DNA from: Rhizophagus irregularis
Lineage: Eukaryota
DNA: 64,000 nt
Assembly: GCF_026210795.1 (NCBI RefSeq)
Contig: NC_089429.1
Coordinates: 4,526,001-4,590,000 of the forward strand
Direction: 5' to 3'
Shown: piece by piece, positions 1,981 through 45,113 of the stretch
Layout: each line of letters begins with the position of its first letter
Position numbering within the stretch: the first letter of the stretch is position 1
Notes under the pieces: generated by a model
The model's input: the letters and a program-made list of their open reading frames with translations, nothing else
Database searches by the model: none
What the model was told of the DNA's origin: nothing
Made by a program: the position numbers and the translations under genes

Positions 1981-1989
1981 TTATAAGAA

Positions 1990-7230: not shown

Positions 7231-7981
7231 CAATAAAATTATTACTATAAAGCTTAAAATATTATAATATGAAATGTGATGTAAAAAAATTTAATATAAT
7301 AATAATTTCATTTATTCACAAAACTTTATAAAATGAGCAAAATATTATTCATATAATTAGAACATAACTTCAAAAATCCATTTGTGTTTTGAAATAATTC
7401 TGTAAATCAATAAGTATGAAAATAAGATTAGAAAAATTCAATTTTCGTTAGATTTGGCTATTAGATTGTTTTATTTAAAATCTGCAATAGATAGTTATAA
7501 ATTCTTTTGTTTTAAAATAAACTTCGTAACATTTACATACAAAACTTATACAGTTTTGTTTATTTATTGAATGAAAAATAATTTTTTAGGATTCAAATAA
7601 AGTAAAATACGAGTGGAAATTTATGAACATTTTTATTATGAAATTACTTTATAGTCAGGAGATTACATTCTTAAAAATTCTTAAATTTATTGGTAGGCAG
7701 GGTAGGCAGATCATCCTCTTTGTAACTTTTAAATAAAATTCACTCGAATTCAAAAGTCAACCAAGTATTAATTGATATCGGGCTTTGTCCAATAATATCT
7801 TTACGTTATAGCGACCGAATTCAAATTCGGATTAAAAAAAAAATGTTTAATTGTGAAAATTCAAAATAAAAAACTTCTTATGCATTATTATTTTTATAAA
7901 AAAAGATAATTCTGATGATACTCTATGTAAGAAAAATGCATATAATAAACGTAATAGTTATTTCACGGGGACTGTGGATAT

Positions 7982-8486
7982 TGTTACTATCGATTTGCGT
8001 CAGGGTCACGTGATAGTAACGGAAATTCATGTCACGTTTATCGTAAAATAAAATGAAATAAAGTATATATGTAAAATTAAGAGTTATATGTATGATTTTA
8101 AAGTGTATATTTATTCAATGTAAATAATAACTTAAAATAATCAAGCAATACAATAAATAAATGCTAATACATAATAAATTCATAAATAATATCAGAATAG
8201 AATATTGCTGCCTCTGCCGGCGATCTGCAATATTACCGAATAAACTATACTAAAATTTAACACTAAATAAACCTTAATTATCCCCTATCCCCCACTGTTC
8301 GCCCGCTCTATATATATTGTTCAAAAATTCGGTATAAATTATACTATGTATAAGTTAAACTTCGTATAAATTATACCAAGTATAAATTACACTTAGTATA
8401 AACTATACAAAGTATAAGTTACACCATTACACTGCGGATCGCTGCTAATTTCTTGAACTTTCCATGTGGCACAGATCCGCGTAACA
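7982..8486 (-). repeat. 3' LTR (505 bp)
   Basis: Differs from 15363-15867 at 4 positions; preceded on the minus strand by PPT AGGGGGG (~8491-8497). Confidence 0.95.
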
Positions 8487-9136
8487 TCAGCCCCCCTAGA
8501 AAGGGTGAGCTCCTGCGAGCCCTGTATTAAGATCAGGGTTTCGGCTTCACGCAACTGGCGAGCAATCGGTAGTAATTGACCATAAAATTCGTCTTCCTTC
8601 ATTTGGTCAAGGTGATGTGGTCGTATATAGGTTACTGCATACAAATTAGCCAATCCTCTCGCCTGGAACAATTCGTATACACGCTTAGCCGTCTTCTTAA
8701 ATTCACTAGCGCCTTTATTGGTGCTGAATAACTCTCTTATTCGCCGGGCATCTTTCTTCTGCCATCCTCGTAGAGTTAGAACTTCCCCTAAATAATAAAA
8801 GGTCTCTATTCTATGTAATGTTTTTCGCCTATGGAAGGAGGGTTGTTGCGTTAAATGTAATAATGTTTCTAATCGTTGTTCATCATCCTGTCCTACATAA
8901 TCCGGTACAGGAATAGTTGTCACTCCTTCCTTTCGCAAATCCTCCACACATTTTTCCAAAACAGTTGCACAATTCCCAATAAAATCGTATAGATGAATTT
9001 CCTGTATTCCAAAATTATTACTGAAAAGGATCCGGTCAGAATCAATCGTAAGAACATCATTAGGTCGCCTTTCGTGTAACTAATGTTGTAGAAAAATCTT
9101 TAATTGCCGGATAGTTTTCTTAGAATATGTCTCCAT
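8393..9136 (-). pseudogene. extra retrotransposon ORF downstream of integrase, unknown function, one internal TAG
   Basis: ATG 9136 METYSKKTIRQLKIFLQH*LHERR... is in frame with the 188-aa ORF 8959-8393 and runs into the 3' LTR. Confidence 0.65.
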
Positions 9137-9237
9137 TTTTACGTCAAAATGACTCCATTCTGGCGTCCCTTTTATATTTTCCTATTTTTCTGGAAAATTG
9201 TAGAAGATTCATGTCGTATCCTGCATTGTTTGATTAC

Positions 9238-10503
9238 CTAATCGTCGCTGTTCACTCTCCTTTCAAAATATGGAAGGAGATGATTTGCGTTTACTAATTT
9301 CTTACGTAAGCGACCATCCATTGTCCGCAGCTTATAGGTTCCATTCGGTCCTATATCGTGTATGTAGTAGGGTCCGTTCCACTTCGGATCCAATTTCCTG
9401 GCCTTAAAATTCCGAAGTAGCACTCTATCGCCGATTTGTTATCGATGTGGGCGAACTTTCTTCCCATATTGCTCAACTTGTTTTTCTTGGGATCGGTGAA
9501 TATTTTGCTGCGCCTTGCGATGATCTTCTTCCAGTGGTCCAATTATCTGATATAGTCGCTTAAAATATGTTGCTGTAAGGTCTTCAACTTGTTCGGAACT
9601 ATCAGGTTGACTAGAGATTTGTAATTCAATCGGTATAGTAGCCTCTCTCCCATACATCAAATAGAAAGGCTCATAACGGGTCGTGTTCTGTCGCATGGTG
9701 CGATAGGCAAACAAGGCGGATGGGAGGTAGACGTCCCAATCCTGCTGATATTGGTCAGAATACTTGGCCAAAAGTTCGCACAAGGTCCGATTGAACCTTT
9801 CGACCAACCCGTTCGTCTGTGGATGGTAAGCAGTGGATAACCGATGTTTTACTCCCAGCCGATTACATAACGAATCCAGAAGTTCATTAACGAAATGAGT
9901 TCCTTGGTCAGTTAGGAGTTCCTTTGGGCAACCATGCCGACAAATGATATCGTCATAGAAAAACGGAACCACCGAAGCGGCCTTAGCATCTGGAAGGGCA
10001 CGAGCTTCCGGCCACTTCGTTAAGTATTCAGTGACCACGACGATATACCGATTTCTGGTTCGCGTTATTGGTAACGGTCCCACAATATCCATTCCGATTC
10101 GATCGAAGGGTCTTCCTACCTTGATGGGATGTAACGGTTCCGATTTTATTGGCGGTTTCCGTTTTTGACATATTTCACAGGTCTGCACATATTGTTTAAT
10201 ATCGTCTTCCATCTGCGGCCAATAGTACCTTTCACTAATGGTCCAATAGGTTTCATTAAATCCAAAGTGTCCGGCTAATGAATCACTATGGAAATTATAT
10301 AAAATCGGTTCCACCTCGCTAAGTCGAAGGACCCGCAAAGGTCTTTGAGGGTTCCGATTATTTTTCTTGTATAAAATTCCATTAATAGAACAATAGTGTC
10401 GAGCTTTGCTTTTGAAACTACGGATTTGTGTGGAATCCATCGTTTCTGGTAGAACGAGATCATTCAGATATTGTAATAGTTGGTAATATAGCGTAATATC
10501 CAT
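9238..10503 (-). pseudogene. Gypsy integrase (HHCC, DDE core, GPY), one internal TAA at 9441-9439
   Basis: H..GHFG..CEIC zinc finger, IGMDIVGP, LTDQG, GLVERFN, WNGPY. Confidence 0.9.
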
Positions 10504-10587
10504 GGTTGGGTTAGATCAAGCCGTAATCTGATAAGAGGTGTCGTCCAGAAATACAATCCCGGTAAAATTTTACGATTTTGTCAATTC

Positions 10588-13560
10588 CTAATGTATTCGC
10601 GATAGACTGTCGACGTTCGTATGTTTCTTGCCAGCGCGGTGGATAATCTTGAAATCGTAGGGTTGGAGTTTCATGACCTAGCGGGCCAATCTTCTGGTAG
10701 GAGTTGCCGAGTTAAAAAGATAACACAATGCTGAATGATCCGTTATAAGAGTAAATCGCTTTTCATGTACATAAGGGTGGAAGTGTCCAACGGCCCACAC
10801 AACCGCTAAACACTCAAGTTCGGTAGCCGAATAATTCCTTTCGGCTTTGCTCAATGTCCTACTTGCATATGCAATGACTCGCTCGAATTCGTCTTCGTCC
10901 TTCTGAGCGAGGATAGCGCCCAATCCCAAAGTTGAAGCATTCGTCAATAAGATGAATTTTTCGTCAAACTTCGGGTATGCGAGAATAGGCGCTTGAACTA
11001 AATGCGTCTTCAATAAGTCAAACGACTGTTGTTGCGCCTCAGTCCATACAAAAGGACTGTCCTTTCTTAATAACTTATTTAAGGGATTTGCGATCTTTGA
11101 GAAATCTTTGCTAAATCGTCGATAATAAGACGCTAATCCCAAAAATCCACGCAATTGGGTGACGTTCCGAGGTATCGGAAAGTTTTCCACCTTTTCGATT
11201 TTCGTGGGATCGGTGCATATTCCTTTGGAACTGATCACATATCCCAGAAACGATAGTTCTCTTTTTATGAAATAACATTTCTCGGGATTCAGTTTCAATC
11301 CGGCGTTCTTAAGTCGGTTGAATACATTCCTTAAATGTTCCAGATGTTTTTCGAACGTTGTTGAATATACGTTCAAATCGTCAAGGTACACCACCACGAA
11401 ATCCCATAGTATCCCCTCCAATATCCCGTTCATCAATCGCTGGAAGGTTGCCGGTGCATTACACAAGCCGAACGGCATCACCAGGAATTGATAGGTACCA
11501 TACTGGGTAATGAAAGCCGTTTTCTCTCTGTCCTTGGGATCAACTTCGACTTGCCAGTAGCCGCTGGCTAAGTCCAACGAAGTGTATTACGATACATGTC
11601 CTAAGGCGTCGAGCATATCGTCTATTCGTGGTAACGGATAAGAATCCTTTTTTGTGACTTGATTCAACTGACGATAGTCCACGCAGAATCGCATTTTCCC
11701 ATTCTTTTTCCGAACCAAAACAACAGGAGATGCCCATGCGCTTTTGGATTTTTCGATGAGCCCTTGCTTCAGCATCTTTTGGATTTCTTCAGCTATGAAT
11801 TGTTGTTCGGTTCGGGACGTTCGGTACCACTGTTGTCGAATCGGTTTAGCATCTCCGGTGTTGATCGAGTGATACACTAAATCTGTCCGACCCAATTCCA
11901 CAGTTGTCCAAGCAAACAAATCCCGATACTGTTCAATCAACTTCTGAAATTCATTCCGTTGAGTTTTGGTTAGTTCTCCAACATTCGGTAGCTTTGATTC
12001 TCCCGCAAAGATATCGGTAATTTCATTATGTAAAAAGGGTAACGCAACACTCCGTTTCCTTATCTTTCCGATTTCTTGCCTTCCACAATAATAACATCCG
12101 ATGGCCTGTTGCTCATGCAGAATCGCATCAACATCTTTCGGTGTAAATTCGACTGATTCGAGGTCTTGTGATCGTTGTTCCTTTGTAGGCGGTTCATTCT
12201 CTTCAGGCGTAACTATACTCATCGTGGTGACGATTTGTTCCGGGACATTTTTCACTGCCGTATATAAAGTAAAATCATTTTGGCAGGTTTTACATCCTCT
12301 TGCTTTACCACATAGGCAAAGACTTTTGCCTTCATTTCCACAAATTTCTTTTCGAGCTTTTTCCAATTGGAACTTTCCGTCTAAATATCGGTAATAATTC
12401 CAATGGTAGAAGCTTCTTTGCAAATAAAACCCTTGATTGATGAGAACTAGATCCCCACTCGTCGTACTATTTTCTTTTTTCAGTCCAGACGATTTACGTT
12501 GCTTTAAAGTATCCGTACTGTCGCTTTCGAACTGATAGCAACAATAAACCTTTTCTTCTAATTCTTCCTCTTCGTATTCATCGTCAGACTCTTCCTCCTC
12601 ATCTCCATCATCATCGTCCTCTTCCTCTTCACTTTCAACTATCCTCGCCTCTTCCTCTTTTTGTTTTATCATTCGTTCGTGCGGCATCATCCGATATTCA
12701 ACAGGGATTTCCACTTCTCGGCCTTGCCAAGTGAACAACAACGTCGATGCCTTATAGTTTAACTGGGCTTGCACTTTCGATAGCCAATCGTTACCTACTA
12801 TGGCACTATAAGATTCGGTATCGATTACTACCACGTTGATAAGAACAGTAACGCCACCAACGGTTATCGGAAAATCCAGCACTTCACCCAATGGCCGTTT
12901 CTTTTCCCCGTTGACGTTTATCATCACAATTGCAGATGGTCGGTCTATCGCAATTCCCAAGTCATTCAACAGCTGACAGGTAACAATACTACCAGCTGCT
13001 CCTGTATCGACAATTAATGGGATTCTTTTCCCTTTTATCATGGCGTCGCAATACATTGCTGTCGTACTTTGTACGTCCTGATGAGCGAATTTAGCGCTTC
13101 TAGTCATTGGTTTCCGTAAACTTTTTCCAACGTCGCTTCGAAGCTTTGGTGATATCTGAAATAGTTGTCCGAAGGTAATGTTTGCTCGTTGCTATTGTAA
13201 ATCGGCAACTATGTTGTACGGTGGTATGTGAGCAGCTATTGACGGCTGAACCTTCGGTGTTTTCTTTTTCCGCACCGTAGCCTTCTTCTTTTTAATTTCG
13301 GTAGCCTGTTCTTTCGCATTGACGGTCATCGGCTCTCCTTCGCCAACATTATTAGTCGTTTGGATAGGAATCGGTATTGGTGCATACTGAGGATCTTCAT
13401 GAGCATTTTCCTCTTCGATTATTTCTTTATTCGGATATGGAGTACTTCGAGTCTTTGGTCTATTCCTTTGAGCAGGGTAGGCTTGGAACAAGGTTACATA
13501 CGAGGGATTTTGAACGGGTTTCGCACCTTCGCCCTCCAAAGGTGCACCTCCTAGTTTAAA
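10588..13560 (-). pseudogene. Gypsy pol: aspartic protease, RT, RNase H (3 internal stops)
   Basis: IVDTGA protease; [32 protein letters not shown] RNase H. The three ORF pieces share one frame. Confidence 0.92.
13510..13560 (-). promoter_or_regulatory. -1 programmed ribosomal frameshift signal (U UUA AAC plus stem/pseudoknot)
   Basis: TTTAAAC directly before the gag TAG; GCACCTT/AAGGTGC stem 8 nt downstream; the -1 frame reads into pol. Confidence 0.8.
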
Positions 13561-15317
13561 GGCGCCGATTGTCCTTGCCCTCCCAATTGCTTCAACAGTC
13601 CTTGGAGCAAATTGGGATCAATATTTCCGGTTGGGTTGAAACCAGCCTTACCACCGGTAGTATTCTCCTTCTTTGGACATCGTCTGCTAATATGTCCAGG
13701 TTCCCCGCACGAGTAACATACTATTGGTGGTCTATCTGGAACCGATAGTTCTGGTCTCGCAGCAGGTGGTTTCCGATAACTACCAGACGGACGATTATCA
13801 ATTTTCTTCTCAATTTCGGAAACTTGTTGCGCCAACACGGTAACTAATTTCGTCAATTCAGCCATCTCAGACTTGCCGGTTTGTGCATAATTCATTATCC
13901 GGGGTCTTCCAGAATTCATCGTCAATTCGCAGGCCTTTGCTCGATTAATGGCGTCGGTCAACGTTTGATCTCCAAAGGGTTTCACCGCCATGTATAATTC
14001 TGGCAATAAGCCAGACACGAACTTCCGGGCTTGTACATTATCCGGGTATGCAAATACCGGCTTGTTGATTCGCTGGTATAATTCCCTGATTGCTGACGCA
14101 TATTGATCGACCATTTCGTTCGGTTGTTGTTGCCGTTGGTCCAACTCGGTGGACTACATTTCAACCAATGCAGGTGTTCGGAATTGCTGCTTGAACACAT
14201 GTTCAAATGTGTTATTATTCGCTGCTCCTCCCCACGCGTTTATAGGGTTGTTGACAACCGTTTGCCACCATACTGCGGCCGTTCCTTTCAGATAGGCGGG
14301 CACGACTTGCAATTTGCGTGCTGCATTCCATCCATTTGCTGCGCATGCGTTATTGAACTTGTTTAACCATGTAATCGGGTCTTGGTTTCCGCCATAAAAC
14401 GTCGGAACTGGTGCCGCTTGTACTCCCCGATTCAGCATTGCATTATTGTTAGCTGTTACCGCTGCGTTTAAATTATTTAACGCATTATTCACATTTTGCA
14501 TATTATTTCCGCCAACTCCTAACGCATTTGTCAAATTATTCAAGGCGTTAAGGAGCTGGTTAGCATTAGGCATTCCTCCAGCTATAGCCGCCATGTCTGG
14601 TTCTTCTGGTTCGTTGAATAAATTTTCTAAATATAATTCTTCGTCGGTATAGAGTAAACCAGGATCTGGTGCTTGAAATAGGAAATCTAAGTGAAGGTCT
14701 TCGTCGGTATAAAGTAATCCGGCTTCTTCTTCTTTAAATAAATTATTAAGGTAAAGATCTTCATTGATATATAGTAGCCCAGGCTCTGGTCCTATTAGAT
14801 CAAAGTTGATCTCTAAATCGGAATAGTTGGATGATCCAGTTGATAATTGTACAACAAGGGATTCTGAAGAATCGGTTAATACTTCAGATAATTCAAGTTC
14901 TTCAGTTTCACTAGTTGCTTCCAGCAGCTCTCCGTAAAAATCCTTCTCAAAATTATCGGTAAGGATACAAGCGTTGTATATCTCTTGCCTTAGATTGGTG
15001 TAAGGGCGAGGTATATCGGTATATCTTACAGTGAAAACCAGTGAATAGATAGCTTCCCAAAGATCCCGAATGGTAGGTGCGTCCGATAAATCCTCTAGTG
15101 CTTGTTGAGTATTACTGGTATAACTTCCAGTAGGATTTTCGGTTGAATACCAGTCCCAAAAGTTAACGAATTGTGGAGTATTGGGTCCAGGCGGGTAACA
15201 ATATGGACAGGAAAGATCACGATGATAATACTGAACTTGGATTATATTATTGTTTAAACGTGTATGCCAACGATCGTGTATAGTATTCTGTTGAAAGAAT
15301 AGGTTATAATCTATCAT
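13551..15317 (-). pseudogene. Gypsy gag with long N-terminal extension and CCHC knuckle; internal TAG at 14156-14154
   Basis: PTFYGGNQDPITWL capsid start; CYSCGEPGHISRRC; ORFs 15317-14154 and 14144-13551 are in frame. Confidence 0.9.
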
Positions 15318-15343
15318 ACAATAATCGGGTGGGTATCAAGTTT

Positions 15344-15359
15344 CTGGCAGAAGGCACCA
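15344..15359 (-). promoter_or_regulatory. primer binding site TGGTGCCTTCTGCCAG (possibly tRNA-His)
   Basis: TGG starts 3 nt inside the 5' LTR and is complementary to a tRNA ending ...GGCACCA; tRNA identity is a guess. Confidence 0.7.
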
Positions 15360-15362
15360 AAT

Positions 15363-15867
15363 TGTTACTATCGATTTGCGTCGGGGTCACGTGATAGTAA
15401 CGGAAATTCGTGTCACGTTTATCGTAAAATAAAATGAAATAAAGTATATATGTAAAATTAAGAGTTATATGTATGATTTTAAAGTGTATATTTATTCAAT
15501 GTAAATAATAACTTAAAATAATCAAGCAATACAATAAATAAATGCTAATACATAATAAATTCATAAATAATATCAGAATAGAATATTGCTGCCTCTGCCG
15601 GCGATCTGCAATATTACCGAATAAACTATACTAAAATTTAACACTAAATAAACCTTAATTATCCCCTATCCCCCACTGTTCGCCCGCTCTATATATATTG
15701 TTCAAAAATTCGGTATAAATTATACTATGTATAAGTTAAACTTCGTATAAATTATACCAAGTATAAATTACACTTAGTATAAACTATACAAAGTATAAGT
15801 TACACCGTTACACTGCGGATCGCTGCTAATTTCTTGAACTTTCCATGTGGCGCAGATCCGCGTAACA
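15363..15867 (-). repeat. 5' LTR (505 bp)
   Basis: Direct repeat of 7982-8486. Confidence 0.95.
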
Positions 15868-15904
15868 TCATCAATGATTTTCACGGCACAGCCATGAAAA
15901 ATGA

Positions 15905-16509: not shown

Positions 16510-17130
16510 GAAAAATGATATTCCAGTGGCTTAGTAAAATAACTTATTTATCTCCGGTATCCGTACATAAAGCCCTTTAATATATACTTATTTTGACTAA
16601 TAATGATCTTTTTATTCCAATATTGCTTTTTACCCATCTTTTTAAATAAACACCACCCGTGAGAATATCAAGAAAAAAATTCACAAATTTTAACTAGGAA
16701 CCGTGGGATAACTTGTATTAAATACATACGAAACTAAAAATCATAATAATGTTTACAAATTGTTTAATTTGCTAACGAAGACTAGTATGGATTACTTTAT
16801 GGTGAGAAAAAATTGTCAATCATAAGGCGCAGCACATATTTTTAGTTTAACTGACACCAAAAAATCTGCCCAAAAAATTCCGCACAGGCCGGCACTATGC
16901 AGTAACACGTGAATAAACAGTAGTGCGTGACAAATAGGATTTTGACTAACCGAAAAAAATCTAAGTCCCTCAGATACTTATAGAAAATGGAAACACAGAG
17001 GGACGTGACACGTGTGATGAATAAATTTTACTATGTGGATTAATTTTTTAGTACAGTGTGACATAGTACAAATCGTACAAATAACCTTAAATCGATATTT
17101 TTTTTTTAAAAAAAAATTTTTTTACAAGAA

Positions 17131-18540
17131 ATGATGAGAGGATATTCATTAGAAAAAGATTTAAGATTATTAATAAATAATCCAAAATATAGTGACATAG
17201 AAATTTTATGTGAGGATGGAAAGAAATTATATGGTTGTAAAGCAATTTTAGCAGCAAGATCCGAAGTATTTAACGGATTACTTTATAATGGAATGAAGGA
17301 AAGTTATGAAAACAAAATTACTTTTCCAAATATTAATTCTTTTGGTATGGAGATTATTATGGAATATATTTATACGGGATCAATTAAAGAAGAATTTTTA
17401 ACAAAGGATAATATAACTGAAGCATTTTACGCCGCAGATTATTTTCAATTACCAGACCTTCAGGATTTTATTATAAAAGTTTTCAAAAATTTCAAAAATA
17501 TGTTAGAAAAATATTTTTCTCCGGAAATATTGTCTATATTTGCAGGAAAAATGCCATTAACAGAAGATAATATTCTATTAAATTTATTGGTTAAAGCGGT
17601 AGCTAATATTCCATTAAATACAATTGAATTCGATCGATTATCTATTAAAGGTCTTCAATATCTTTTATATTGTACACATGAAAAAAAAATTCCTTTTGCA
17701 ACCCCAGAATATGAAGTTTTTCGATATAGTGCTATCCTTGCAGCAAAACAAGTTTCTAACGATGCATATAAAGCTCTTATGGAACGGGTACCGACCTTAG
17801 AACAAATAGAAAACTCTGTACAAGTACTAGAGAATAAAATAATTGCTGATCATCAAAAAATTGCTAAAGAATTGGAACCTTTAATTGAATTTATTGATTT
17901 CAGACGAATTCAAGGTCTAATATTAGTTGATATTATTGAGCCACTAGAAATTGTTCCAACTAAAATTATTTTAAATGTATATCGATATAATACAAAATCA
18001 ATTAATTCCGATAGAAATTATATTCGAGGAGTACCCATTTATTTCAATTATATTTGGGATGATACAGCATGTGGATCAAAACTTATTATTGAGGATAATG
18101 GAAAAGTTATTTATGCACGAAATGATCTTGATTTACTCCATAGTGTTAGAGCTAAAATGATATTAGAAAATAATTATATTTTTGAATGGGATGTTATTAT
18201 TGAAAGAACTTGTAGTTGGTCTTGGGTTGGGGTATGTGCATCAGAAAATTTTGATTATGAAATTCCTGCAGGAAAACAATTTTCTGGATGGGTATTAGGT
18301 TCCAATGGTAATTGTCGTAGTTCTGGAGTTAATATAGGAAATTATTGCCCATCATTCGGAGATGGTACAAAAATTACTGTCCACTTAGATATGAATAAAA
18401 GAACTTGTGCTTTTACAGTCAACGGTACAAAGTATCCAGAAGTATCAACATGGGATAATTTACCATCAAAGCTTTATCCAGTAGTATCGTTGTATTACCC
18501 TGGTCGATTTCGAATTCAGCCTCATCAGAAAAGAATTTGA
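17131..18540 (+). CDS. BTB/POZ-BACK-SPRY protein, 469 aa
   Basis: Intact paralog of 1990-3411. Confidence 0.9.
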   Translation: MMRGYSLEKDLRLLINNPKYSDIEILCEDGKKLYGCKAILAARSEVFNGLLYNGMKESYENKITFPNINSFGMEIIMEYIYTGSIKEEFLTKDNITEAFYAADYFQLPDLQDFIIKVFKNFKNMLEKYFSPEILSIFAGKMPLTEDNILLNLLVKAVANIPLNTIEFDRLSIKGLQYLLYCTHEKKIPFATPEYEVFRYSAILAAKQVSNDAYKALMERVPTLEQIENSVQVLENKIIADHQKIAKELEPLIEFIDFRRIQGLILVDIIEPLEIVPTKIILNVYRYNTKSINSDRNYIRGVPIYFNYIWDDTACGSKLIIEDNGKVIYARNDLDLLHSVRAKMILENNYIFEWDVIIERTCSWSWVGVCASENFDYEIPAGKQFSGWVLGSNGNCRSSGVNIGNYCPSFGDGTKITVHLDMNKRTCAFTVNGTKYPEVSTWDNLPSKLYPVVSLYYPGRFRIQPHQKRI

Positions 18541-21827: not shown

Positions 21828-24800
21828 ATGGCTCAAAGTAACGATAAAGGTAAAAGCATATAACATGAGTATAGATATCTAATACAAATTGAAATTGCTC
21901 TAAATTTTTTTCAAACCAAATTTGCAACATAATGAAACTAGTTTCAAAAATTGAGAAAGATAAAGGTAAGAAAATTATTTAACAGCTTGCGAATTATAAA
22001 CATAATTTAAATTTTTTAAACTATTTCTAAATATTATTTTACTATATTAGCTCGTAAGTAATAGGTTATCTTATAATCGGAATGATAATTAATTAAATTA
22101 CTTATTTCTATTATTTTATATAACCAAATAATTCATTTTATTATTTAATATTATTATAGTTGGTAAGTTAATAGCTATTTTTTTTTTATTGCATTTTACA
22201 TGATATCTTAAATAACTAAATTTTCTATTAATATAATTACGATACTAATATCATAGGAAGTAAGTAATTAATTTTATATTAATTTAAAAGTATTTAAAGT
22301 ATTTATTTAATAATTTTAATAATATAGGGAGTATGTTTTTATTTAATTCCATTATATTTATATAATATTTACATATAATTTAAACTAACTAAATTCTTTA
22401 TTTAAAAAATTATTCAAACATTTTAGAACGTAAGTAATTCTATTATATTTATACAATATTTACATATAATTTAAACTAACTAGATTCTTTATTTAAAAAA
22501 TTATTCAAATATTTTAGAACGTAAGTAATTCTATTATATTTATATAATATTTACATATAATTTAAACTAACTAAATTCTTTATTAAAAAACCATTTTGTA
22601 ATTTCTTTTAGTTGGTAAGTTATAAGTTATTTATATAATATTTACATATAATTTAAACTAACTAAATTCTTTATTTAAAAAATTATTCAAATATTTTAGA
22701 ACGTAAGTAATTCTATTATATTTATATAATATTTACATATAATTTAAGCTAACTAAATTCTTTATTTAAAAAATTATTCAAATATTTTAGATTGTAAGTA
22801 ATTCTATTATATTTATATAATATTTACATATAATTTAAACTAACTAAATTCTTTATTTAAAAAATTATTCAAATATTTTAGATTGTAAGTAATTCTATTA
22901 TATTTTTATAATATTTACTTATAATTTAAACTAACTAAATTCTTTATTTAAAAAATTATTCAAATATTTTAGATTGTAAGTAATTCTATTATATTTTTAT
23001 AATATTTACATATAATTTATACTAACTAAATTCTTTATTTAAAAATTATTTATTAGGGAGTATGTTATTTATTTAATTCTATTATATTTATATAATATTT
23101 AAATATAATTTAAGCCAACTAAATTCTTTATTTAAAAATATTTTAGAATGTAAGTAATTTTATAATATTTACATATAATTTAAAACTAACTAAATTCTTT
23201 ATTAAAAAACTATTTTGTAATTTCTTTTAGTTGGTAAGTTATAAGTTATTTATATAATATTTACATATAATTTAAACTAACTAAATTCTTTATTTAAAAA
23301 TTATTCAAATATTTTAGAATGTAAGTAATTCTATTATATTTATATAATATTTATATTTAATTAAACTAACTAAATTCTTTATTTAAAAATTATTCAAATA
23401 TTTTAGGTTGTAAGTAATTCTATCATATTTATATAATAATTACATATAATTTAAACTTACTAAATTCTTTATTTAAAAAATTATTCAAATATTTTAGATA
23501 GTGAGTAATTCTATTATATTTATAGAATATTTACATATAATTTAAACTAACTAAATTCTTTATTTAAAAAATTATTTATTTAATAATATAGGATGTATGT
23601 TATTTATTTAATTCTATTGTATTTATATAATATTTACATATAATTTAAATTAACTGAACTCTTTATTTAAAAAATTATTCAAATATTTTAGATGGTAAGT
23701 AATTCTATTATAATTTACATATAATTTAAACTAACTAAATTCTTTATTTAAAAAATTATTCAAATATTTTAGAACGTAAGTAATTCTATTATATTTATAT
23801 AATATTTATATATAATTTAAACCAACTAAATTCTTTATTTAAAAAATTATTTATTTAATAATTTTAATAATATAGGGAGTATGTTATTTATTTGATTCTA
23901 TTATATCTATATAATATTTACATATAATTTAAACTAACTAAATTTTTATTTAAAAAATTATTCAAATATTTTAGATTGTAAGTAATTCTATAATATTTAT
24001 ATAATATACATATAATTTAGACCAACTAAATTTTTTATTTAAAAAATTATTCAAATATTTTAGATAGTAAGTAATTCTATTATATTTATATAATATTTAT
24101 ATATAATTTAAACTAACTAAATTCTTTATTTAAAAAATTATTCAAATATTTTAGATAGTAAGTAATTCTATTACATTTATATAATATTTACATATAATTT
24201 AACTAACTAAATTCTTTATTTAAAAATTTATTTTGTAATTTTTTTTAGTTGGTATGTTATAAGTTATTTATTTAATTCTATTATATTTACTATAATATTT
24301 ATATATAATTTAAACTAAATTCTTTATTTAAAAAATATTCAAATATTTAGATGGTAAGTAATTCTATATTTACTATATAATATTTACATATAATTTAAAC
24401 TAACTAAATTCTTTATTTAAAAAATTATTTACTTAATAATATAGGGCGTATGTTATTTATTTAATTCTATTATATTTATATAATATTTACATATAATTTA
24501 AACTAACTAAATCCTTTATTTAAAAAATTATTTATTTAATAATATAGGGCGTATGTTATTTATTTAATTCTATTATATTTATATAATATTTACATATAAT
24601 TTAAACTAACTAAATTCTTTATTTAAAAAATTATTCAAATATTTTAGATAGTAAGTAATTCTATTATATTTATATAATATTTATATATAATTTAAACTAA
24701 CTAAATTCTTTATTTAAAAAATTATTCAAATATTTTAGAACGTAAGTAATTCTATTTATATTTATATAATATTTACATATAATTCAAACTAACTAAATTC

Positions 24801-27800
24801 TTTATTTAAAAAATTATTTTGTAATTTCTTTTAGTTGGTAAGTTATAAGTTATTTATTTAATTTTATTATATTTATATAATATTTACATATAATTTAAAC
24901 TAACTAAATTTTTTATTTTAAAAATTGTTCAATTATTTTAGATTGTAAGTAATTCTATTATATTTATATAATATTTACATATAATTAACTAACTAAATTC
25001 TTTATTTAAAAAATTCTTTATTTAATGATATAGTCTGTAAGTTATTTATTTAATTCTATTATATTTATATAATATTTACATATAATTTAAACTAACTAAA
25101 TTATTTATTTAAAAAATTATTTATTTAATAATATAGGGCGTATGTTATTTATTTAATTCTATTATATTTATATAATATTTACATATAATTTAAACTAACT
25201 AAATTCTTTATTTAAAAAATTATTTATTTAATGATATAGGGCGTATGTTATTTATTTAATTCTATTATATTTATATAATATTTATATATAATTTAAACTA
25301 ACTAAATTCTTTATTTAAAAAATTATTCAAATATTTTAGAACGTAAGTAATTCTATTTATATTTATATAATATTTACATATAATTTAAACTAACTAAATT
25401 CCTATTTATATTTATATAATATTTACATATAATTTAAACTAACTAAATTCTTTATTTAAAAAATTATTTATTTAATAATATAGGGCGTATGTTATTTATT
25501 TAATTCTATTATATTTATATAATATTTACATATAATTTAAATTAACTAAATTCTTTATTTAAAAAATTATTTTGTAATTTCTTTTAGTTGGTAATTTATA
25601 TGTTATTTATTAAATATATAATATTTACATATAATTTAAACTAACTTAATTCTTTATTTAAAAAAAAATTATTCAAATATTTTAGATGGTAAGTAATTCT
25701 ATTATATTTTTATAATACTTACATATAATTTATACTAACTAAATTCTTTATTTTAAAAATTATTTATTAGGGAGTATGTTATTTATTTAATTCTATTATA
25801 TTTATATAATATTTAAATATAATTTAAACTAACTAAATTCTTTATTTAAAAATATTTTAGAATGTAAGTAATTTTACAATATTTACATATAATTTAAATT
25901 AACTAAATTCTTTATTTAAAAAATTATTTACTTAATAATATAGGGCGTATGTTATTTATTTAATTCTATTATATTTATATAATATTTACATATAATTTAA
26001 ACTAACTAAATTCTTTATTTAAAAAATTATTCAAATATTTTAGATAGTAAGTAATTCTATTATATTTATATAATATTTATATATAATTTAAACTAACTAA
26101 ATTCTTTATTTAAAAAATTATTCAAATATTTTAGAACGTAAGTAATTCTATAATATTTACATATAATTTAAAATTAACTAAATTCTTTATTAAAAAACTA
26201 TTTTGTAATTTCTTTTAGTTAGTAAGTTATAAGTTATTTATTTAATTCTATTATATTTATATAATATTTGCATATAATTTAAACTAACTAAATTCGTTAT
26301 TTAAAAAATTATTCAAATATTTTAGATAGTAAGTAATTCTATTTATATTTATATAATATTTACATATAATTCAAACTAACTAAATTCTTTATTTAAAAAA
26401 TTATTTTGTAATTTCTTTTAGTTGGTAAGTTATAAGTTATTTATTTAATTTTATTATATTTATATAATATTTACATATAATTTAAACTAACTAAATTTTT
26501 TATTTTAAAAATTGTTCAATTATTTTAGATTGTAAGTAATTCTATTATATTTATATAATATTTACATATAATTAACTAACTAAATTCTTTATTTAAAAAA
26601 TTCTTTATTTAATGATATAGTCTGTAAGTTATTTATTTAATTCTATTATATTTATATAATATTTACATATAATTTAAACTAACTAAATTATTTATTTAAA
26701 AAATTATTTATTTAATAATATAGGGCGTATGTTATTTATTTAATTCTATTATATTTATATAATATTTACATATAATTTAAACTAACTAAATTCTTTATTT
26801 AAAAAATTATTCAAATATTTTAGATGGTAAGTAATTCCATTATATTTATATAATATTTACATATAATTTTAACTAACTAAATTCTTTATTTAAAAAATCA
26901 TTCAAATATTTTAGATGGTAAGTAATTCTATTATATTTATATAATATTACATATAATTTAAACTAACTAAGTTCTTTTTAAATTATTTTGTAATTTCTTT
27001 TAGCTGGTAAATTATTTGTTATTTATTTAATTCTATTATATTTATACAGTATTTCATATAATTTAAACTAACAATTCTTTATTTAACAAATTATTTTGTA
27101 ATTTTCTTTAGCTGGTAAGTTATTTGTTATTTATTTAATTCTATTACTATATTTATGTAATATTACATATAATTTAAACTAATTAAGTTCTTTATTTATT
27201 AAATTATTTTGTAATTTCTTTTAGCTGGTAAGTCATTTGTTATTAAATTCTATTATATTTATATAATATTTACATATAATTTAAATTTACTAAATTCTTT
27301 ACTTAAAAATTATTTTGTAATTTCTTTTAGTTGGTAAGTTATAAATTATTATATACTATTATTTAAAATTAAATTAATTAATTATTTAAACTATATTAAA
27401 TTTTTATAATTTTATTTAGAGTAAGTATAATTAATATTGTTTAATATTTAAATTTTTAATGTAAATTTTATTTAAATTTTAATTTAATATAATTTCATTT
27501 TATACTTAAAGAATTGTTACTAGTGGAAGTAAAATTATGGATCAATTTATTTCTGAAAATAAATTAAAATGGATTTCTTATGATAAATTTAAACATATTA
27601 AATATCTTGATAAAGGAGGATTTGGTATTGTATATAAAGCTAAATATAAAGCTACTAAGTATAAAGATATTAAAGTTATTCTTAAATATTTTGATTATCT
27701 TAATAATTCAGATGAAAGTTTAAATGAAAGTTTAAATGAAGTATGATTAAATATTATCTTTTTTTTAATATTATAAATTATTTATACCTAATTTACTGAT

Positions 27801-30155
27801 AAATATTATTTTTTATAGTGGAAAATTATTGATTCATATGAAATTATTAGAATATATGGATTTACAAAAAATCCAGATACTTTGAATTATGTATTAATAA
27901 TGGAGTATAGAAATAAGAATAGTTTAAAAAAATGTTTAACAGAAATAACAAAAAATTGGGAACAAAAATTATTTTGTTTATATCAAATTATTAAGGGACT
28001 TAATGATATTCATGAAGAAGATCTTATTCATTATAGCTTTCATAATGGTAATATTTTATGTAACAAATATGAAGAAAATATATATGGAATTTTTATTAGT
28101 GATTATTTAGGATTATATCAACTTGCAAAATCTTTTTTAAAAGCAAATGATATCTATGGAGTTTTACCATTTATAGCACCTGAAATTTTAAAAGGTCAAC
28201 CCTATACTCAAGCTAGTAATATATATAGTTTTTCTATAATTATGTGGGAATTTACATCTAAAATTCTACCATTTAATGATAAAGCACATGATATTCAGCT
28301 TGCTTTAAGTATTTGTAAAGGTGAACGTCCTGAAATTATTGAAAATACTCCACAATGTTATATAGATTTAATGAAAAAATGCTGGGATGAAGATCCATTA
28401 AAAAGACCATCTTCTAAAGAAATTTTAAATATTATTGAAAATTGGATTTTTCGTCCTGAGAATAAGAAAATTGAAGATATTAATGAAGAATTAAAAAGCA
28501 ATATTATGGAATTTATAAATGCACCAATTGAGCATCTTATTGTAGAATCTCATCCAAAAGCATGCTATACAAGTCATTCACTTGGTTTTACTAGTAAAGA
28601 ATTAATTGAAAAACTAATTCTAGAAAGCCCTCAGGTATTTCTTGAACTATATCAAAGTTCTCAAAATGAATTACAAAATATTCAAATTGAATTAGTTAAT
28701 TTACAACAAAGAAATTCTCGAATAGAAGAAGAAATTCTTAAGTTAGAAAAGATTGCTGAAACTTATTATCAAAGTTCTCAAAATGAGTTAGTTAATTTAC
28801 AACAAAGAAATTCTCAATTTAAAAATCAATTAATTCAAACAAAAGAAGAAAAACTCAAGTTAGAAAATGAATTATTTGATTTACAACAAAGGAATTTTAA
28901 ATTTGAGCAAAATAATCAAAATCCGAGGCTTAAATTTGCTAAACAGATTAAAGAATTTGCAAAAAAAGAAAATGTTTTACAAACCCAAATTATTGATCTA
29001 CAAAATGAAAAGCAAAACTTAGCTGGCAATTTAACTGAACAGTTGGGACAAAATAAACTAATTAACCAGCAAGTTCAAGATCAAATCTGCCAGTTAAAGC
29101 AAGAAGAAACTAAATTGCAAGAAAAATTATCTCAAATAAAAGCTAATATTCAAGAATTAAAATCTTACAAAGAAAGCTTAATTGAACAAAAAGAGCAATT
29201 AGAAAATAGATTAAATCAGTTTCAAGTTAATTATGAACAGATAGAACAAGAAAAGATCAGATTATACAATATGGCAGAAGGACTTTCACAAGAACAGAAG
29301 CAAACAATTAAATTGAAAATCAAGTTTGAAAAAGAAATTGCTCAATTGGAACAAAATTTGATTATTGAAGAACAAATCAAAATGCAATTAACTCAAGCTT
29401 TACAGATTAAAGTTGATAAAATAAATGAATTAGAACAAAAACTTATTAACCTTGATCAAGAGCGTATTAAAAAATTACAAAATAAAAGAAAAGAATTGAG
29501 TGAAATTGAAAAGGAATTATTAAATAAATTAACTAGTGGGAAAAATACTAAAGAAATTCATAAAGAAGAAGCTAAACAAAAAGAGATAAATGAACTCCAA
29601 CAAGAATTATCAAGAACTTTAGCTTCTTATAATATCAATAGAAAAAAACAGGTTTTCAATCAAGTCAATAATTTTTTGAAAGTTAAGGGTGATTTCCTAA
29701 CTTTACGAGAAGAAGCTATTAAAAAACTACAAAATTGCTGCAATCATCTAGAAAGTTCTATTAATAAAGAAAGAAATACTATTGGTTCTAACAGAGATAT
29801 GAAAATCTCAAAATTGACTGATAAATATACTAAAAAATTTCAAAGTATTCTTGTAAAATATAATGATGGATTGTTAGAGTTGAACAAAATTTATTATTCC
29901 TTAAAGAATGTTATTCAGAAAAATAAAGAGTTGGAAGTTAGCCTCATGATTGAAAATATTCTTAAGTTGAATTCTTTCAATCTTGATAAATACAAAATTT
30001 TTAAATTTGCTACTAATTCTCAGGAAGGAACCAGAATTCAATTAAATTCTAATATGATGGAAGAAGATATAAATTCATTAAGAAAGAATTTGAATGAATT
30101 GAAATTAGAATTAAACCAAGAAAAAAAAGAATCAAAAAATTTAGCAACAGTTTAA
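21828..30155 (+). CDS. micro-exon-array gene: variable N-terminal peptide, TKL-type pseudokinase, long coiled coil
   Basis: Model: 21828-21849, 21942-21965 (or ATG 21932-21965), 56 x 3-nt exons from 22051 to 27333, 1-nt exon 27420, 27512-27740, 27819-30155. All introns are GT-AG and the joined frame is open. Confidence 0.7.
21966..27511 (+). repeat. tandem array of 58 intron units (71-144 bp spacing, typically ~95) separated by micro-exons
   Basis: Unit: GTAAGT/GTATGT - tattatatttatataatatttacatataatttaaACTAACtaaattctttatttaaaaaatt - TAG, then 3 variable nt. Confidence 0.92.
27512..30155 (+). CDS. kinase-like domain plus ~500-aa coiled coil (exons 27512-27740, 27819-30155)
   Basis: TSGSKIMDQFI, KGGFGIVYKA, VILK, YGFTKNP, HYSFHNGNIL, PFIAPE, GERPEI, CWDEDPLKRP; Q/E/K/L heptad-rich tail. 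Confidence 0.9.
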
Positions 30156-30769
30156 ATTTAACCATATTGATGGATTATAGTACAATTCATAAAATAGTTA
30201 TTTATTGAAAAGAAATTAAGTATAGTATTTACAATATATATTCTAGAATTTATTGAACATTAATAGTTCTAGAAATTTTGAGATTTTTTTTATTAAATTA
30301 TAACTATATTTTTATATTTTATTTTTGTTTTTTATCAATAAAGGATCATTAAACTTAAAGTTCGTTATATAAATCATTTAAATAACCATTGTAAATGTTT
30401 TTTACTTATATTTAAATTAAAAATAAATAAAACATATTTAGTATATGAGATGATTTATATTTATTTATTTATTTATTTTATGTGAAGAATGGCAGGATCA
30501 CCAAAAGAGCAAAACTAACTAATTAAAGAAAGAAGTTCAACATAAATCTGTCATCCAGGGGAAGGAGAAGCCTACCTGTGGACCCAAACTTCTTTTTAAA
30601 GAAACTAGACTAATCCTCTATCACGTCCAGTAGAGGACGAGGTAAAAAGCGCCAAAATAAAACTTCGAACAAAAAAATATAAAGTAAACTATTAAAAGAA
30701 GTCAGTGGATATCTACATATTATAAATAAAATAAACATCATTACATATAGGTGAAGAATAATTAATAAT

Positions 30770-39631: not shown

Positions 39632-42600
39632 ATGTCTTTACCTAATAATAAAATTATTAATAAATTAAATTATCGAAGAAGGAAGAATAAACGCAGTAGT
39701 TTTAGAAATAATCTGACCTTCTTAAGTCCCAGAGATGATCAAAGTGATATGTTATCATGTGCCAAAAATGATCCTCTTTCCAAAAAGGAACGTTATCAAA
39801 TCGAGATTTGTCAGGATGGTAAACTTGCTGTAACATTTGATACAGGTAAAAAATTCATTTGAAAATTTATAAATTGTGTAATGTTTGTTTATTATATTAT
39901 TAATGGAGTAACACAAAGCAGCCTTGAACTTTAGACCCCTCTCCTTTAATTAAAGTAACTCCTTTTTTCTTTTTTTTTTAAAAAAAAAGCAAACCTTCGG
40001 ATTAGAGTATTAGATAATACAGATCATCGTCAATTCGGATTATCTAAAAAAACGACTACTTCAGAACATAATACAAACAATCAGAACGATCAGGGTGAAG
40101 AAGAAATTACTAAAACAATCGCTTATTTCAAAATAAACGAAAATTTGGATATTGCCAAGTTCTATGACCAATATGATACTCTATGCACTAATCGAGAAAC
40201 TGGAATTGACGTTAATGATGATACGGACAAAAGATATAGATGGGGTTTAGATATATCAAATATACAAAATTATTATCAAGACAAATATTTTATCTTTATT
40301 GCTGTATCCCGCATAGATGTTAGTGAGGATATGAAAGGAAAAGTGAATACTGATACAAATTTTGATTATAAGAAAAACACTATAAAAAAAAGATATGAAA
40401 GAATTAATGAAGATTTTAGACTTGATCTGTCAGGAACATCATACTATAGTAAATCAAATGAAACTAAAAAAGGAACAGCAGTTTACCGTCTTAAGCTAAT
40501 AAAGGAAAATAACAACTTTATTCTTGATTTGTGTCCCGTAACTTATTATTATTCTGGTAGCGTTTCAGGAATATGTAAATTTATACAAAATTTTGATGAT
40601 CGCGATATCGATCAAAATAATTATACTTTAAAAAGATTTGTAGTATTGAACTTTAATGGAATATATAATTTTGAGTATGATTTTGATTATAGAAATCTTG
40701 ATTTAAATACAAGATTTGATTATCCAAAAAGTATTGAAAATGAATTACAACATTGGCATAAAGAAAATTTGGAAGATTGTATGGATAAGCTTCTTGCATG
40801 TCTTTATGATCAATATTTCTTGGTCGAACAATATAAGAATAATGTACAGGCGCTTGAAGGTAAAATATCATACATAATTAATATTATTTATTTTATTATA
40901 ACATATTTTGAATTTATATTAACAAAAAATTATAGTTTATGATCTGGCAGACATGAGCTTAAAAACTACTCCAAAAAGAGTCGAAAAAGATAAGCACGGT
41001 AGAAAGTTTAATCGCAATACTTTTTCAGTCAGTAAACTACAAATTTGTTTTACTCGAGGAATTAATTCTGTGAAGTAAGTTTGTTTTGAATTGTTCGATT
41101 TTGTCATTACTTATTCATTTATCATTTTTTTTATTCGAATCAAATTATCTATTAGATTGTACTTAATGGAGAATGGTCTGGAGGTCGTATCAAAAAAATT
41201 TGGTGAAATAGAAAAAATTCATTCGCTAGAATTCATTGATAGTGATGAAAAATTACTTATAATGGGTGAGAAAAAGAATCAGGTGAAGCTTGTGATCTGG
41301 GATATCTATAATACTGTAGAGGCCACACCGATAACATTAGAAAATTTTTCTATCGCAGATCTTGGCAATCGTTTGGCTAGAACTTCAGGAAATATTTTAC
41401 ACGTTGATGAAGTTGGAAAGGTTATATCAGTTCTTAAAAAAATCGAAAATAAATTAAATAAAAATACACCAAAAGATTCAAAAGGAATTTTTGAAAAATA
41501 TACACATTCAAAATTAGGTGAAACCCCGGATGGAAAAGCGGATGAAAAACATACGATACATTATGATAAAGGATTTGAACCGATAGTTATTGATAAAGAA
41601 CCTTGGGTGATGGATGAGTATGAAAGAAATTCTTATTGTCTTTATCAAAAGAAAGAAAATACAAGAATACAAACTTTACAACTTATAGTTGGCAGATCCA
41701 CGGTTCAAATTTGGCATCAAGTCCGTGATGATAGTAAGTCTAAAGGTGAACTTTCTAAACTTCCTAACAAAGGAGGTCCATTTCTTGAATATATATGGGC
41801 GAATGGTATTCCGATAAATCAAGAAAGGAAATCAACAAGATTAAGAATTGGAGAGTTCAAATATAAACCAAATGATGGATCAAGCCATATACCAGATGAT
41901 TTTTTTTTGAAAGTTTATTGGTATGAAAGAGCTTCAAATGTAAATTACAAAGGGAAAACAGAAGAAGAAATTAGAGAAATTGAGGAAGAAGAAATAAAAA
42001 AAATGGAACGTAATAGAAAAGAGAGAAGAAAGGATGAAATTATGGAAAAGGATGAGGATGAAATTATGGAGGATGAAATTATGGAGAAGAATGAAATTAT
42101 TATGGAAATGAAGGAAAAAGTAATTCAACGGAAAGATATTATTGAAAAAGTTGGTGCGGTAAGACGCGCTTGTAAAGCATTGGAACATCTTAATAAGCGC
42201 AGAAGTTTTCTCGTGACTAATTACATTAAAATACATCAAGTAGGTTGATTATATTCATTGTTTAAACTTTTTTTTAGGAAAAATGGAAGTTAATTAAAAT
42301 TTCTTTTTAATTAAAAGCATGAGGAAATGATAATGTATATTCAGCATATAGTCTGGAGGTTTGCTAAATTTAAACCTGAGGAATTTAAATTGTTAGACGT
42401 TCGACATAACGTCATGAAAAAATTAATTCTTGGTGATTGCAATCATTTAATAAAACTTATTTTATTTGGAGACAAAAGTAATAAGGATGATGAAAATGAA
42501 AATAAAGAGGAATTCGTAATCAGACATATACCAAGGAGTGTGTCGTGGCCAGGAAAAAATTTTATAAGTGATGATGACCTCCGATTTGATAATAATGGTC

Positions 42601-45113
42601 TAGGACTAGAAGATAATGATGAAAGGCCAAAAAATGATATGGAATTAGCAATTTATCGTTACAAAGGTAAATGAAACTTATGGCGTAGGTTTATAATTTA
42701 TATCATTGATTAATAATTTAATTTTACCTATAGGTCGTGAACTTAAAGATACTGTTGTTGTCGCTTATCTCTTGGAATATTATTCTAGTCATGCAACAGA
42801 TTATGCTGGTTGGATGAGTACTGTGTCTAAGGCATTACCATTATTATTTAAATATAACTACGGTTCGTTTTTATTTTTCATTCAACACTTCAATAGGATC
42901 TATGATATTTACAATTTTATTTTATAACACAGATGATTATGCCAGAAAGCTATTTCGTAAAGAATGTTTTGCGAATCAAGATTATTTTTCAGCACAAGAT
43001 CCTTATAATATTATTCCAATAGAATACCAAGCGAAACGTAACAATAACATTAAATTTAGGGCATTTAGAATAGACAAACTGCAGTCCGACGAGTATAAAT
43101 GGTATAATAGAATTGGAAAATTATTTGATCCTTTTAAAAAAACGTACAAATTTCTTGAAGATTTTGATAATTACCTTGAGAAGTCGCCTTTAGCTTTAAG
43201 AGTTGTTCCTCTTCCAGAATTTACCATGAACAGAATTCCTCAGAAAAATATAGAACACAATTATAGATTAAAAATTGTTTTAAATATTTTTTTGTTCTTA
43301 TTTATACCACGATGGTACCAAATTAGTCGAGATAAAAAGAAACTGTTAAGCCCTTTTTCTAGGGTGGTGCGATATGAGAATGATGATGATATGTATGACA
43401 ATCCAGCAACCGAAGCGGTTATTGATTTTCGTTGGCAACAAGCGAGAAATTTCTTTTTCTTCCTTTTTCTTCGATTTCTTGTTTTTGCCTTTTGTTTCAT
43501 AATTATTAGCTGGGAATATTTAAATCATGAAGTTATAAGTTGGAAATTTCGAAATTTTTTAGTTGCATTAATTTTCATATTTTATTATTTAGCAGCATAT
43601 TTATTCATTACTGAATTAATACAGTTGTATTTTCACGGACCTAGAAAATATTTTGGTGATATATTTAATAGTTTTGACATATGTTCCATTTTACTTCCCG
43701 TGATAGTAATGTCAATAATGCTTCGAGATTTTGAATTTTCTGATGGCTTTGCAAGTGTTAAATCAATTGATATGGGATTGATGGTGGGGACATCATTCTC
43801 TATTTTCTTCCTTTGGATCGAATTTGTAAGGTTTTGTTTTACAATTTTTTTTTTCTTTTAAATATAATATAATATTAACATGTGATTTTTAATAATTTAG
43901 GTTTTATATCTCCGCTTAATATCAAGTAAATATAAAATTCAACTTTATTTTAAAAAAGTTCATTATTATCAATTAATAATTCATTATTTTTTATTTTTAT
44001 TTTTAATCTATTAGAAATAGCCAAATATATTTATTATGTTATATATATCATCAAAAACATATTCCCATTTATTTTGTTTATGTTCATTGTAACAATTGGA
44101 TTTGCGCACACAATGTATAATCATTTCAATTTTTTTTTTTTGATATCATATTTATTTTAATTTAATTGATAACAATTTTTATTTATATCTAGGTTTATTT
44201 TACTTAAGGACCCTAATAATCCTAAAATTAATGTAAAATTGGATACATTAAGTGGAACTGCTACAAGTATAATAAATGATGATGAAACATTATTTAATAT
44301 TAAACTTGAATCTGATTATGATGTTAAAGATAAGAATGATAATCCATTTTCATCCTTTTCTACGGCAATAATGGCTGCATATTTTTGGTTGAATGGTGAT
44401 ATGGTTCAAAGAGATCATTTTGACTTTTGGGTTATTGATTTATTTACTTTAATTGCTAGTATTTTTATTGTAACTGTTTTGCAAAATATGTTGATTGCTT
44501 TCATGGGGTAAATTATTATTATTAGTATTATTAATTTATAAATACTATTTTATTTATTAATATTATTTATTTATTTTATTTTAGTGGAGTTTATGAAAGA
44601 GCAGAAACTAATGGAAGACAATCTTTATTAAGATTTAGAGCAAATCAAATAGCAGATTATGAAGCATTAGAACATTTTCATTTTTGGCCTAATGAACCTG
44701 AACCAAAATATATTTATTATATTGGACAATCTAAAAATTTTCAAGAATGGTATCAAAAAAGAAAAGATGATCAAGGTGAAATTTATAAAGATTTTGAGGA
44801 AAAATCTACAATTATTACTCAAACTTTTAAAGATGTTGATTTTGATGAAACTTCAATTTGGAAATTTGATGATGATAATAATAATTCATCTGATAATATT
44901 AAAGGTAAAAAGAAAGAAGTTTCTACCGATTCTACTGATTCTATTGACTCTATTATAGAATTATCAGAAATAATGGAAGAAAAAAATTCTCAAGAAAATT
45001 TTTTAAAAGAAGTTGATAAAAGAATTAATGAAATAAAAAAAATGAGTGATGATATTCATAATTTATTTAATGAAATATGTATAAAATTTAATAATATACC
45101 AAAAAACTTATGA
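39632..45113 (+). CDS. TRP-like cation channel, multi-exon (~11 exons)
   Basis: GT-AG exons join in frame where checked (39632-39845, 39990-40859, 40936-41074, 41156-42239, 25-nt exon 43901-43925, last exon 44585-45113); NPATEAVIDFRW, TM helices, pore FSTAIMAAYFWL, S6 VTVLQNMLIAFM, LRFRANQIADYE. Confidence 0.8.

Follow-up and report, generated by a model that had tools for sequence, protein, structure and literature searches.

How a gene can be read through dozens of consecutive exons no longer than one codon, and by what process their product comes to vary, is the question raised by a locus of the arbuscular mycorrhizal (AM) fungus Rhizophagus irregularis (assembly GCF_026210795.1, contig NC_089429.1, positions 4,526,001-4,590,000 of the forward strand; this stretch of 64,000 nucleotides (nt) is the window, and all positions below are relative to it). 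On balance, and with moderate confidence, we read its array of 56 three-nt exons as the N-terminal coding part of a gene for a predicted-dead tyrosine-kinase-like (TKL) protein, in which all 56 exons are likely spliced alike and the encoded head of 57 residues, which may be a recognition tag, likely owes its variation mainly to DNA recombination among cassettes centred on the exons.

The array occupies 22051-27333 on the forward strand, where all other parts of the gene also lie. This segment is a tandem repeat of about 10% GC with a period of about 91-103, and a splice-signal parse resolves it into 56 three-nt exons, each between a TAG and a GT donor (GTAAGT in 40, GTATGT in 13 and other in three). 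Exons 1-28 start at 22051, 22160, 22257, 22328, 22427, 22518, 22612, 22700, 22791, 22882, 22973, 23057, 23147, 23231, 23318, 23407, 23498, 23592, 23692, 23773, 23876, 23975, 24064, 24155, 24249, 24351, 24445 and 24548, and exons 29-56 at 24648, 24739, 24835, 24942, 25034, 25137, 25240, 25340, 25484, 25588, 25686, 25771, 25861, 25944, 26044, 26135, 26219, 26326, 26422, 26529, 26621, 26724, 26824, 26915, 27004, 27112, 27225 and 27331. All 54 strong donors in 22001-27400 have an AG exactly 3 nt upstream, and in 200 shuffles of the region such sites numbered 0.54 on average and four at most. The introns of the array are 68-141 nt long; those between 22331 and 27330 (about 10% GC) are paralogous, with a common central core that carries a CTAAY branch-point-like motif and with 5' and 3' ends that differ by class and accompany the exon. 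CTAAY is present in 42 of the 55 introns, and 40 of these have it 36-47 nt (mostly about 45 nt) 5' of the acceptor. An earlier note, made from the sequence alone, had placed the array correctly at 22051-27333, but it had missed a one-nt exon at 27420 and the kinase beyond.

Upstream of the array, two exons predicted from the sequence set it to phase 1. The coding part of exon 1 (21828-21849), 22 nt with the ATG, ends in phase 1, and the proteins P0067 and P0097 start with a similar heptapeptide; an acceptor about 17 nt upstream of 21828 suggests a further, non-coding exon. Exon 2 (21942-21965, 24 nt) runs from phase 1 to phase 1, and the first residues of P0062 correspond to a near-identical exon read in phase 0. 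Translation might alternatively begin at an in-frame ATG within intron 1, at 21932.

The evidence that carries the splicing of the array comes from RNA. Two poly(A) runs chosen by species label (X23 and X24) and two contig sets presumed to be RNA (X2 and X6) were aligned to 27345-27610; over the wider segment 27345-30400, paralogous kinase reads dominated. The runs placed 32 (X23) and 40 (X24) reads on 27345-27610, and the comparison covers 30 letters of each loose end in all but three of the loose-end rows. Loose ends at 27512 were found in four reads of X23, four reads of X24, the single X2 contig and one of nine X6 contigs. For the 30 letters before 27512 the predicted product consists of two bases from the end of exon 47, the nine exons 48-56 and base 27420; it was found exactly in X23 and in the X2 and X6 contigs and at 29 of 30 letters in X24, and read agreement at this junction was 1 in both raw runs. 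The two contigs carry 179 and 115 loose letters, respectively, of which 30 each were compared. A row of eleven exons, each of 1-3 nt, is therefore spliced together, and the reading frame that leads into the kinase is phase 1. Exons 48-56 (26529-27333) are joined in all four RNA sets, three of which also include the final two bases of exon 47, whereas the splicing of exons 1-46 in the same way is inferred from their identical splice signals. The deviant letter in X24 would arise from a retained intron 47, from exon 1 or 2 joined straight to exon 48 (intron 47 and exons 1 and 2 all end in AG), from an error or from an allele.

The one-nt exon at 27420 restores the frame into the kinase. The RNA loose ends fit this model, the donor is perfect, and an X6 contig of a close paralog has the corresponding base joined downstream. 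Two other solutions were rejected on the RNA: a 5-nt exon at 27420-27424, which the loose ends do not match and after which phase 1 would stop at once, and an acceptor at 27524. Four further groups of loose ends (27514, 27518, 27519 and 27521) come from paralogs and, read by eye, are stop-free in the kinase frame; they show similar triplets and entry through a single base, and their peptides differ between groups. One more row, from X23 at 27518, was judged a mixture (agreement 0.66) and left out. In the close-paralog X6 contig the upstream intron still precedes the single base with its 3' end, while the base itself is already joined to the kinase exon; this contig reads as a partly spliced intermediate from which the downstream intron was removed first.

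With the one-nt exon the full model has a coding sequence of 2781 nt (926 residues, 60 introns) without an internal stop, and only phase 1 is in frame with the kinase because this exon is used. The first kinase exon (27512-27740) encodes the N-lobe with the Gly-rich loop; its match to PF07714 (E 0.007) falls under the curated cut-off, and RNA depth begins at about 27512. The last exon (27819-30155) encodes the kinase C-lobe without the catalytic Asp (PF00069, E 1.5e-26; PF07714, E 3e-24), followed by about 550 residues rich in Q, E, K and L that are probably a coiled coil, as judged from composition only. The best PDB matches of the kinase are RIPK4, CTR1 and ZAK/MLT, at about 1e-18 to 1e-17. 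Because Ser replaces the catalytic Asp and the DFG-type motif has a one-residue insertion, the protein is predicted to be a catalytically dead TKL pseudokinase; in 26 of 74 motif matches among homologues the catalytic-Asp column holds Asn or Gly. An AlphaFold model of the C-lobe had a predicted local distance difference test score of 57 and was not used. A Pfam search of the two large exons returned kinase families only, with no NACHT or ankyrin, and an Atlas search with the C-terminal part gave no match.

Among the best 120 of 152 homologues, the named ones are from Rhizophagus except two from Funneliformis, JGI proteins being found besides. The public model P0001 matches 77% of the query with 100% identity; it omits the array, its start being a Met inside the kinase exon. 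P0001 also removes about 105 C-lobe residues (about 28045-28365) that are open in the window, and no such joint was among those listed for RNA reads over 27345-30400. Judged from the proteins themselves, P0062, P0019, P0096, P0100 and P0104 start with runs rich in G, N, M, I and L, which resemble what related arrays would give if read in phase 0. With the first kinase exon as query, eight proteins were found, none reaching upstream into an array, and residues 1-60 of P0062 had no match among shorter proteins.

The earlier note had described a split-codon design, in which each residue is set by two neighbouring exons, and its counts were correct: 15 distinct triplets, 13 exons ending in T, 12 beginning with AA (10) or GA (2), and a peptide rich in W, Y, H, R and D (24 of the 57 residues). 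At the 55 junctions of the array, phase 1 makes no stop, phase 2 makes 13 and phase 0 makes none; phase 0 is thus open, as the note had said, yet the upstream exons impose phase 1, and RNA joins the last ten three-nt exons in this frame, which stays open through the 926-residue protein. The note had also put stop avoidance in phase 1 at about 4% by chance, weakened by duplications, and both points held: in 200,000 permutations of exon order (mean of 2.7 stops) the probability of no stop was 0.031, rising to 0.09 when only the 10 distinct T-junctions are counted and to 0.20-0.52 in shuffles that keep blocks of 2-4 exons (partly by construction). Stop avoidance alone is weak evidence because of this rise once duplications are allowed for, and the strong evidence for the phase-1 frame is the RNA.

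The permutation of exon order, which the note had proposed for alleles and paralogs, was run on the array and on look-alike arrays in metagenomes. A generic three-exon pattern matched at least 116 metagenome stretches, of which 112 loci were parsed and 13 picked by eye for a closer parse. Most of the 112 are simple short-period repeats of GTAA type, and L008 and L092 look like chance on closer parse. Four AT-rich arrays, L050, L044, L065 and L103, resemble the introns of the window (blastn 226, 136, 113 and 84 bits, respectively; shuffled queries at most 54). Together they have no phase-1 stop at 49 junctions (2.8 expected; four junctions across gaps of more than 150 nt are left out) and 11 phase-2 stops. 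Taken singly, L044 gave P = 0.052 and L050 P = 0.41, and L065 and L103 are uninformative, as they cannot form a stop; some donors of L044 are broken. Phase 1 is not a rule of such arrays, since an unrelated array of 35 exons (L027; also L015) is open in phase 0 and has eight phase-1 stops, and for the same reason we consider it most likely that the split codon reflects the phase of a multiplied ancestral intron rather than design. No match to the intron-core pattern was found in prokaryote genomes and viral contigs.

Several other metagenome loci deserve mention in their own right. On the minus strand of L027 (about 3263-5844) and in L015, L077 and L078, about 35 three-nt exons with diverged introns, open in phase 0 and closed in phase 1, lie behind an open reading frame (ORF) without a Pfam match, whose motif we take to be one of fungal GTPase-like proteins. 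L019 has upstream sequence in common with this group and 11 three-nt exons. L054, L020, L060, L108 and L070 are GC-rich (56-60%); in these arrays 6-28 three-nt exons alternate with paralogous introns that are about 90 nt long. In phase 1 the peptide of L054 repeats Cys-Ala-Pro-Gly, and L070 sits behind an EGF-domain exon.

The structure of the introns points to the process by which the array changes. The classes of the two intron ends are linked tightly across an exon (mutual information of 1.34 of 1.44 bits) and also to the first two bases of that exon, and they are linked weakly across the intron core (0.29 bits; 0.10 when shuffled). Because of this, the repeat unit is taken to be an acceptor end, an exon and a donor end, and neighbouring cassettes appear to have been exchanged within the shared intron core. 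A recent duplication has given exons 31-34 and exons 47-50 (398 of 405 positions identical), and introns 30-33 are identical to introns 46-49, whereas exon 30 differs from exon 46. Sixteen of the 27 near-identical intron pairs (two differences at most) lie within different codons, and the residue is changed in all 16. The A class is the largest, with 28 cassettes; its per-site difference is 0.48 at exon base 2 and 0.76 at base 3, about 7-11 times the value of 0.067 in the flanks. For the G class the corresponding values are 0.41, 0.65 and 0.034. Exon|donor joints hold 15 of the 18 CpGs of the region. These patterns agree with diversifying selection acting on the peptide. It is at the DNA level that the sequence shows its clearest diversifying process. 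Intron 36 (25340-25484, 141 nt) has its core duplicated internally without an exon, as an out-of-register crossover would leave.

All these data are compatible with the following mechanism. The introns would probably be recognised by intron definition and removed one after another, as neighbouring introns cannot both use one exon of 1-3 nt at once, and the partly spliced paralog contig agrees with removal of the downstream intron first. Cassettes, of three main classes, would be gained, lost and reordered by unequal crossover or by conversion within the intron core that they share; as the introns are in phase 1, each new pair of neighbours makes a new codon, so that a change of order gives the peptide new residues besides rearranging it. 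Selection would purge any order that contains a stop, and change at exon bases 2 and 3 is apparently favoured. The charged, aromatic-rich head differs between paralogs and, by analogy with fungal nonself receptors, might give each pseudokinase/coiled-coil scaffold its own binding surface, a recognition role that is speculative.

Several points weigh against this reading. The RNA covers 10 of the 56 exons, in eight reads and two contigs, and since read mates may overlap, each run may hold as few as two molecules (perhaps as few as four in all). Expression is weak, with 31 and 43 reads at 99% identity or more over 3 kb when about a quarter of each run was sampled. The T class does not follow the pattern of the other two, its exon base 2 being invariant (0) and base 3 only modestly variable (0.20 against 0.086 in the flanks). 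Moreover, an appearance of rapid exon change could arise in the absence of selection if introns are homogenised in concert, or if CpG, which is methylated in these fungi, decays at exon base 3. Finally, recombination is deduced from a single haplotype.

The earlier note had instead proposed that alternative inclusion yields many isoforms, some ending early. A splice-based diversifier of this kind, as in truffle nank genes, with transcripts that carry different exon subsets and hence many heads, some truncated, seems to us unlikely here, although every exon is frame-neutral and the truffles offer a precedent (PMC4986451, PMC13449251, PMC9815663 and PMC3689799). Skipping would recode the peptide less often than the note had held: among the 54 single-exon skips, 27 cleanly delete one residue, 23 delete one residue and change another, and four make a stop, while 59 of the 1485 longer skips make a stop and 37% of all exon subsets are stop-free. 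The X24 letter is what exon 1 or 2 joined to exon 48 would give, but it is equally accounted for by the retained intron, error or allele mentioned above. Furthermore, no skip was found within exons 48-56 in the eight reads and two contigs, whose junction reads agree fully, and 53 of the 56 donors are of the strong GTAAGT or GTATGT type. In this small sample, splice-made isoforms are neither supported nor excluded by the RNA seen, and the claim of many isoforms has found no support so far.

To about the same low degree we credit a neutral runaway expansion, in which a unit of intron and codon multiplied like a minisatellite in a tolerant linker, with selection acting on splice sites and the open frame only and the peptide being irrelevant. 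Recent exact duplications and the stop-avoidance P of just 0.03-0.09 are in keeping with it, as are a predicted dead kinase, low expression and a large, fast-turning family (the TKL expansion is noted in PMC4219462). However, change is focused on exon bases 2 and 3 between flanks that are alike, 15 CpGs have been retained at exon|donor joints in DNA of 10% GC, and both the layout and the open phase 1 are preserved in several expressed paralogs and in diverged arrays. It is highly improbable, in our view, that the array is spliced but is not the head of the kinase, being a 5' leader, a short upstream ORF ending in the 5-nt exon at 27420-27424, or a phase-0 reading from an internal ATG. The start of the NCBI model P0001 at the internal Met, the open phase 0 and the way in which P0096, P0100 and P0104 read such arrays in phase 0, with a kinase entry that fits the 5-nt exon, would agree with this, but all the RNA rows compared, of the gene and of its paralogs, use the one-nt exon and none the 5-nt exon, and only phase 1 then fits the kinase.

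Several consequences follow. There is direct RNA proof that the spliceosome of a culturable model symbiont assembles at least 11 consecutive exons of 1-3 nt, which makes the order and the fidelity of ultra-short-exon splicing testable. The Rhizophagus kinase models P0001, P0062, P0096, P0100 and P0104 lack the variable N-terminal region or misread its frame. Codon-sized exon arrays, known from truffle NLRs, now have a counterpart in the expanded TKL kinome of Glomeromycota, and they hint at where these fungi may hold variable surfaces that recognise signals of the host, of a bacterial endosymbiont or of self and nonself. A more far-reaching proposal, which we hold to be rather improbable, is that AM fungi possess a family-wide set of unannotated (pseudo)kinase receptors with heads of split-codon three-nt cassettes, diversified both by exon skipping inside a cell and by cassettes recombining across nuclei or isolates, as an anticipatory recognition repertoire in a multinucleate fungus.

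Elsewhere in the window, 7980-15870 is a long terminal repeat (LTR) retrotransposon on the minus strand, with 510-nt LTRs that are 99.2% identical, matches to protease, reverse transcriptase, RNase H and integrase, and stops that interrupt the pol frame. Dispersed and tandem copies of a BTB-SPRY gene of about 470 residues, some of them split by stops, lie at 1987-5379, 17110-18540 and 47267-58960 (domains checked at the 17110 copy only). A multi-exon gene at 39959-45113 has several hydrophobic segments and is channel-like by eye, and five of its ORFs have no Pfam match. A tandem repeat of period 185 (4.4 copies) is found at 61683-62480.

Among the literature matches listed (subscription papers and supplements being outside their scope), there was no report of such arrays in Rhizophagus, and the geneML preprint had no passage on microexons. 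The closest known system is that of the truffle NACHT-ankyrin (nank) genes, whose tens of codon-sized exons are reported to undergo extensive alternative splicing (Iotti et al. 2012, via PMC4986451, PMC13449251, PMC9815663 and PMC3689799). The Tuber genes likewise form an expanded and variable fungal family with dozens of 3-bp exons (here 56) and a proposed recognition role. However, they are NLRs, while the host here is a TKL pseudokinase with a coiled coil and without NACHT or ankyrin; the truffle exons are described as diversifying a C-terminal recognition domain, while the array here is N-terminal; and the lineage here is Glomeromycota, with an array closed by a one-nt exon. Of the extensive alternative splicing reported there, eight reads and two contigs show no sign within exons 48-56 here, one letter of X24 deviating from the predicted product. 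Within the literature searched, what is new is an array of this kind in this lineage, on a kinase host, at the N-terminus, in a split-codon phase and with a one-nt linker, with the reservation that split codons may not be new.

Schistosoma micro-exon genes (MEGs; PMC8293314) share short (36 nt or less) symmetric exons that can be removed without a frameshift, here all of 3 nt and of phase 1-1. Unlike MEGs, which are composed mainly of micro-exons, the array and the one-nt exon make up 169 of the 2781 coding nt here, and, in contrast to MEG products, which have a signal peptide and are secreted or membrane-bound, a crude hydropathy test, run with no dedicated predictor, showed no hydrophobic leader (the highest 19-residue mean was 0.47 in the first 80 residues and 1.0 in the whole model). 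In Coprinopsis cinerea (PMC12230235) and in Fusarium CYP621A (PMC12940212), one-nt or three-nt exons that are essential for the frame have been overlooked by annotation; with 27 three-nt exons spread over 26 genes and 13 one-nt exons over 13, such isolated fungal exons number about one per gene, whereas 57 follow one another here. In the case of the high-internal-conservation repeat arrays of Podospora HNWD/NLR genes (PMC9815663), unequal crossover between near-identical units reshuffles a recognition region as is proposed here, but the repeat there is a coding domain, whereas here the homology for crossover is intronic and the unit codes for one split codon. The gene thus resembles the truffle arrays in layout, and it is neither a nank gene nor a MEG.

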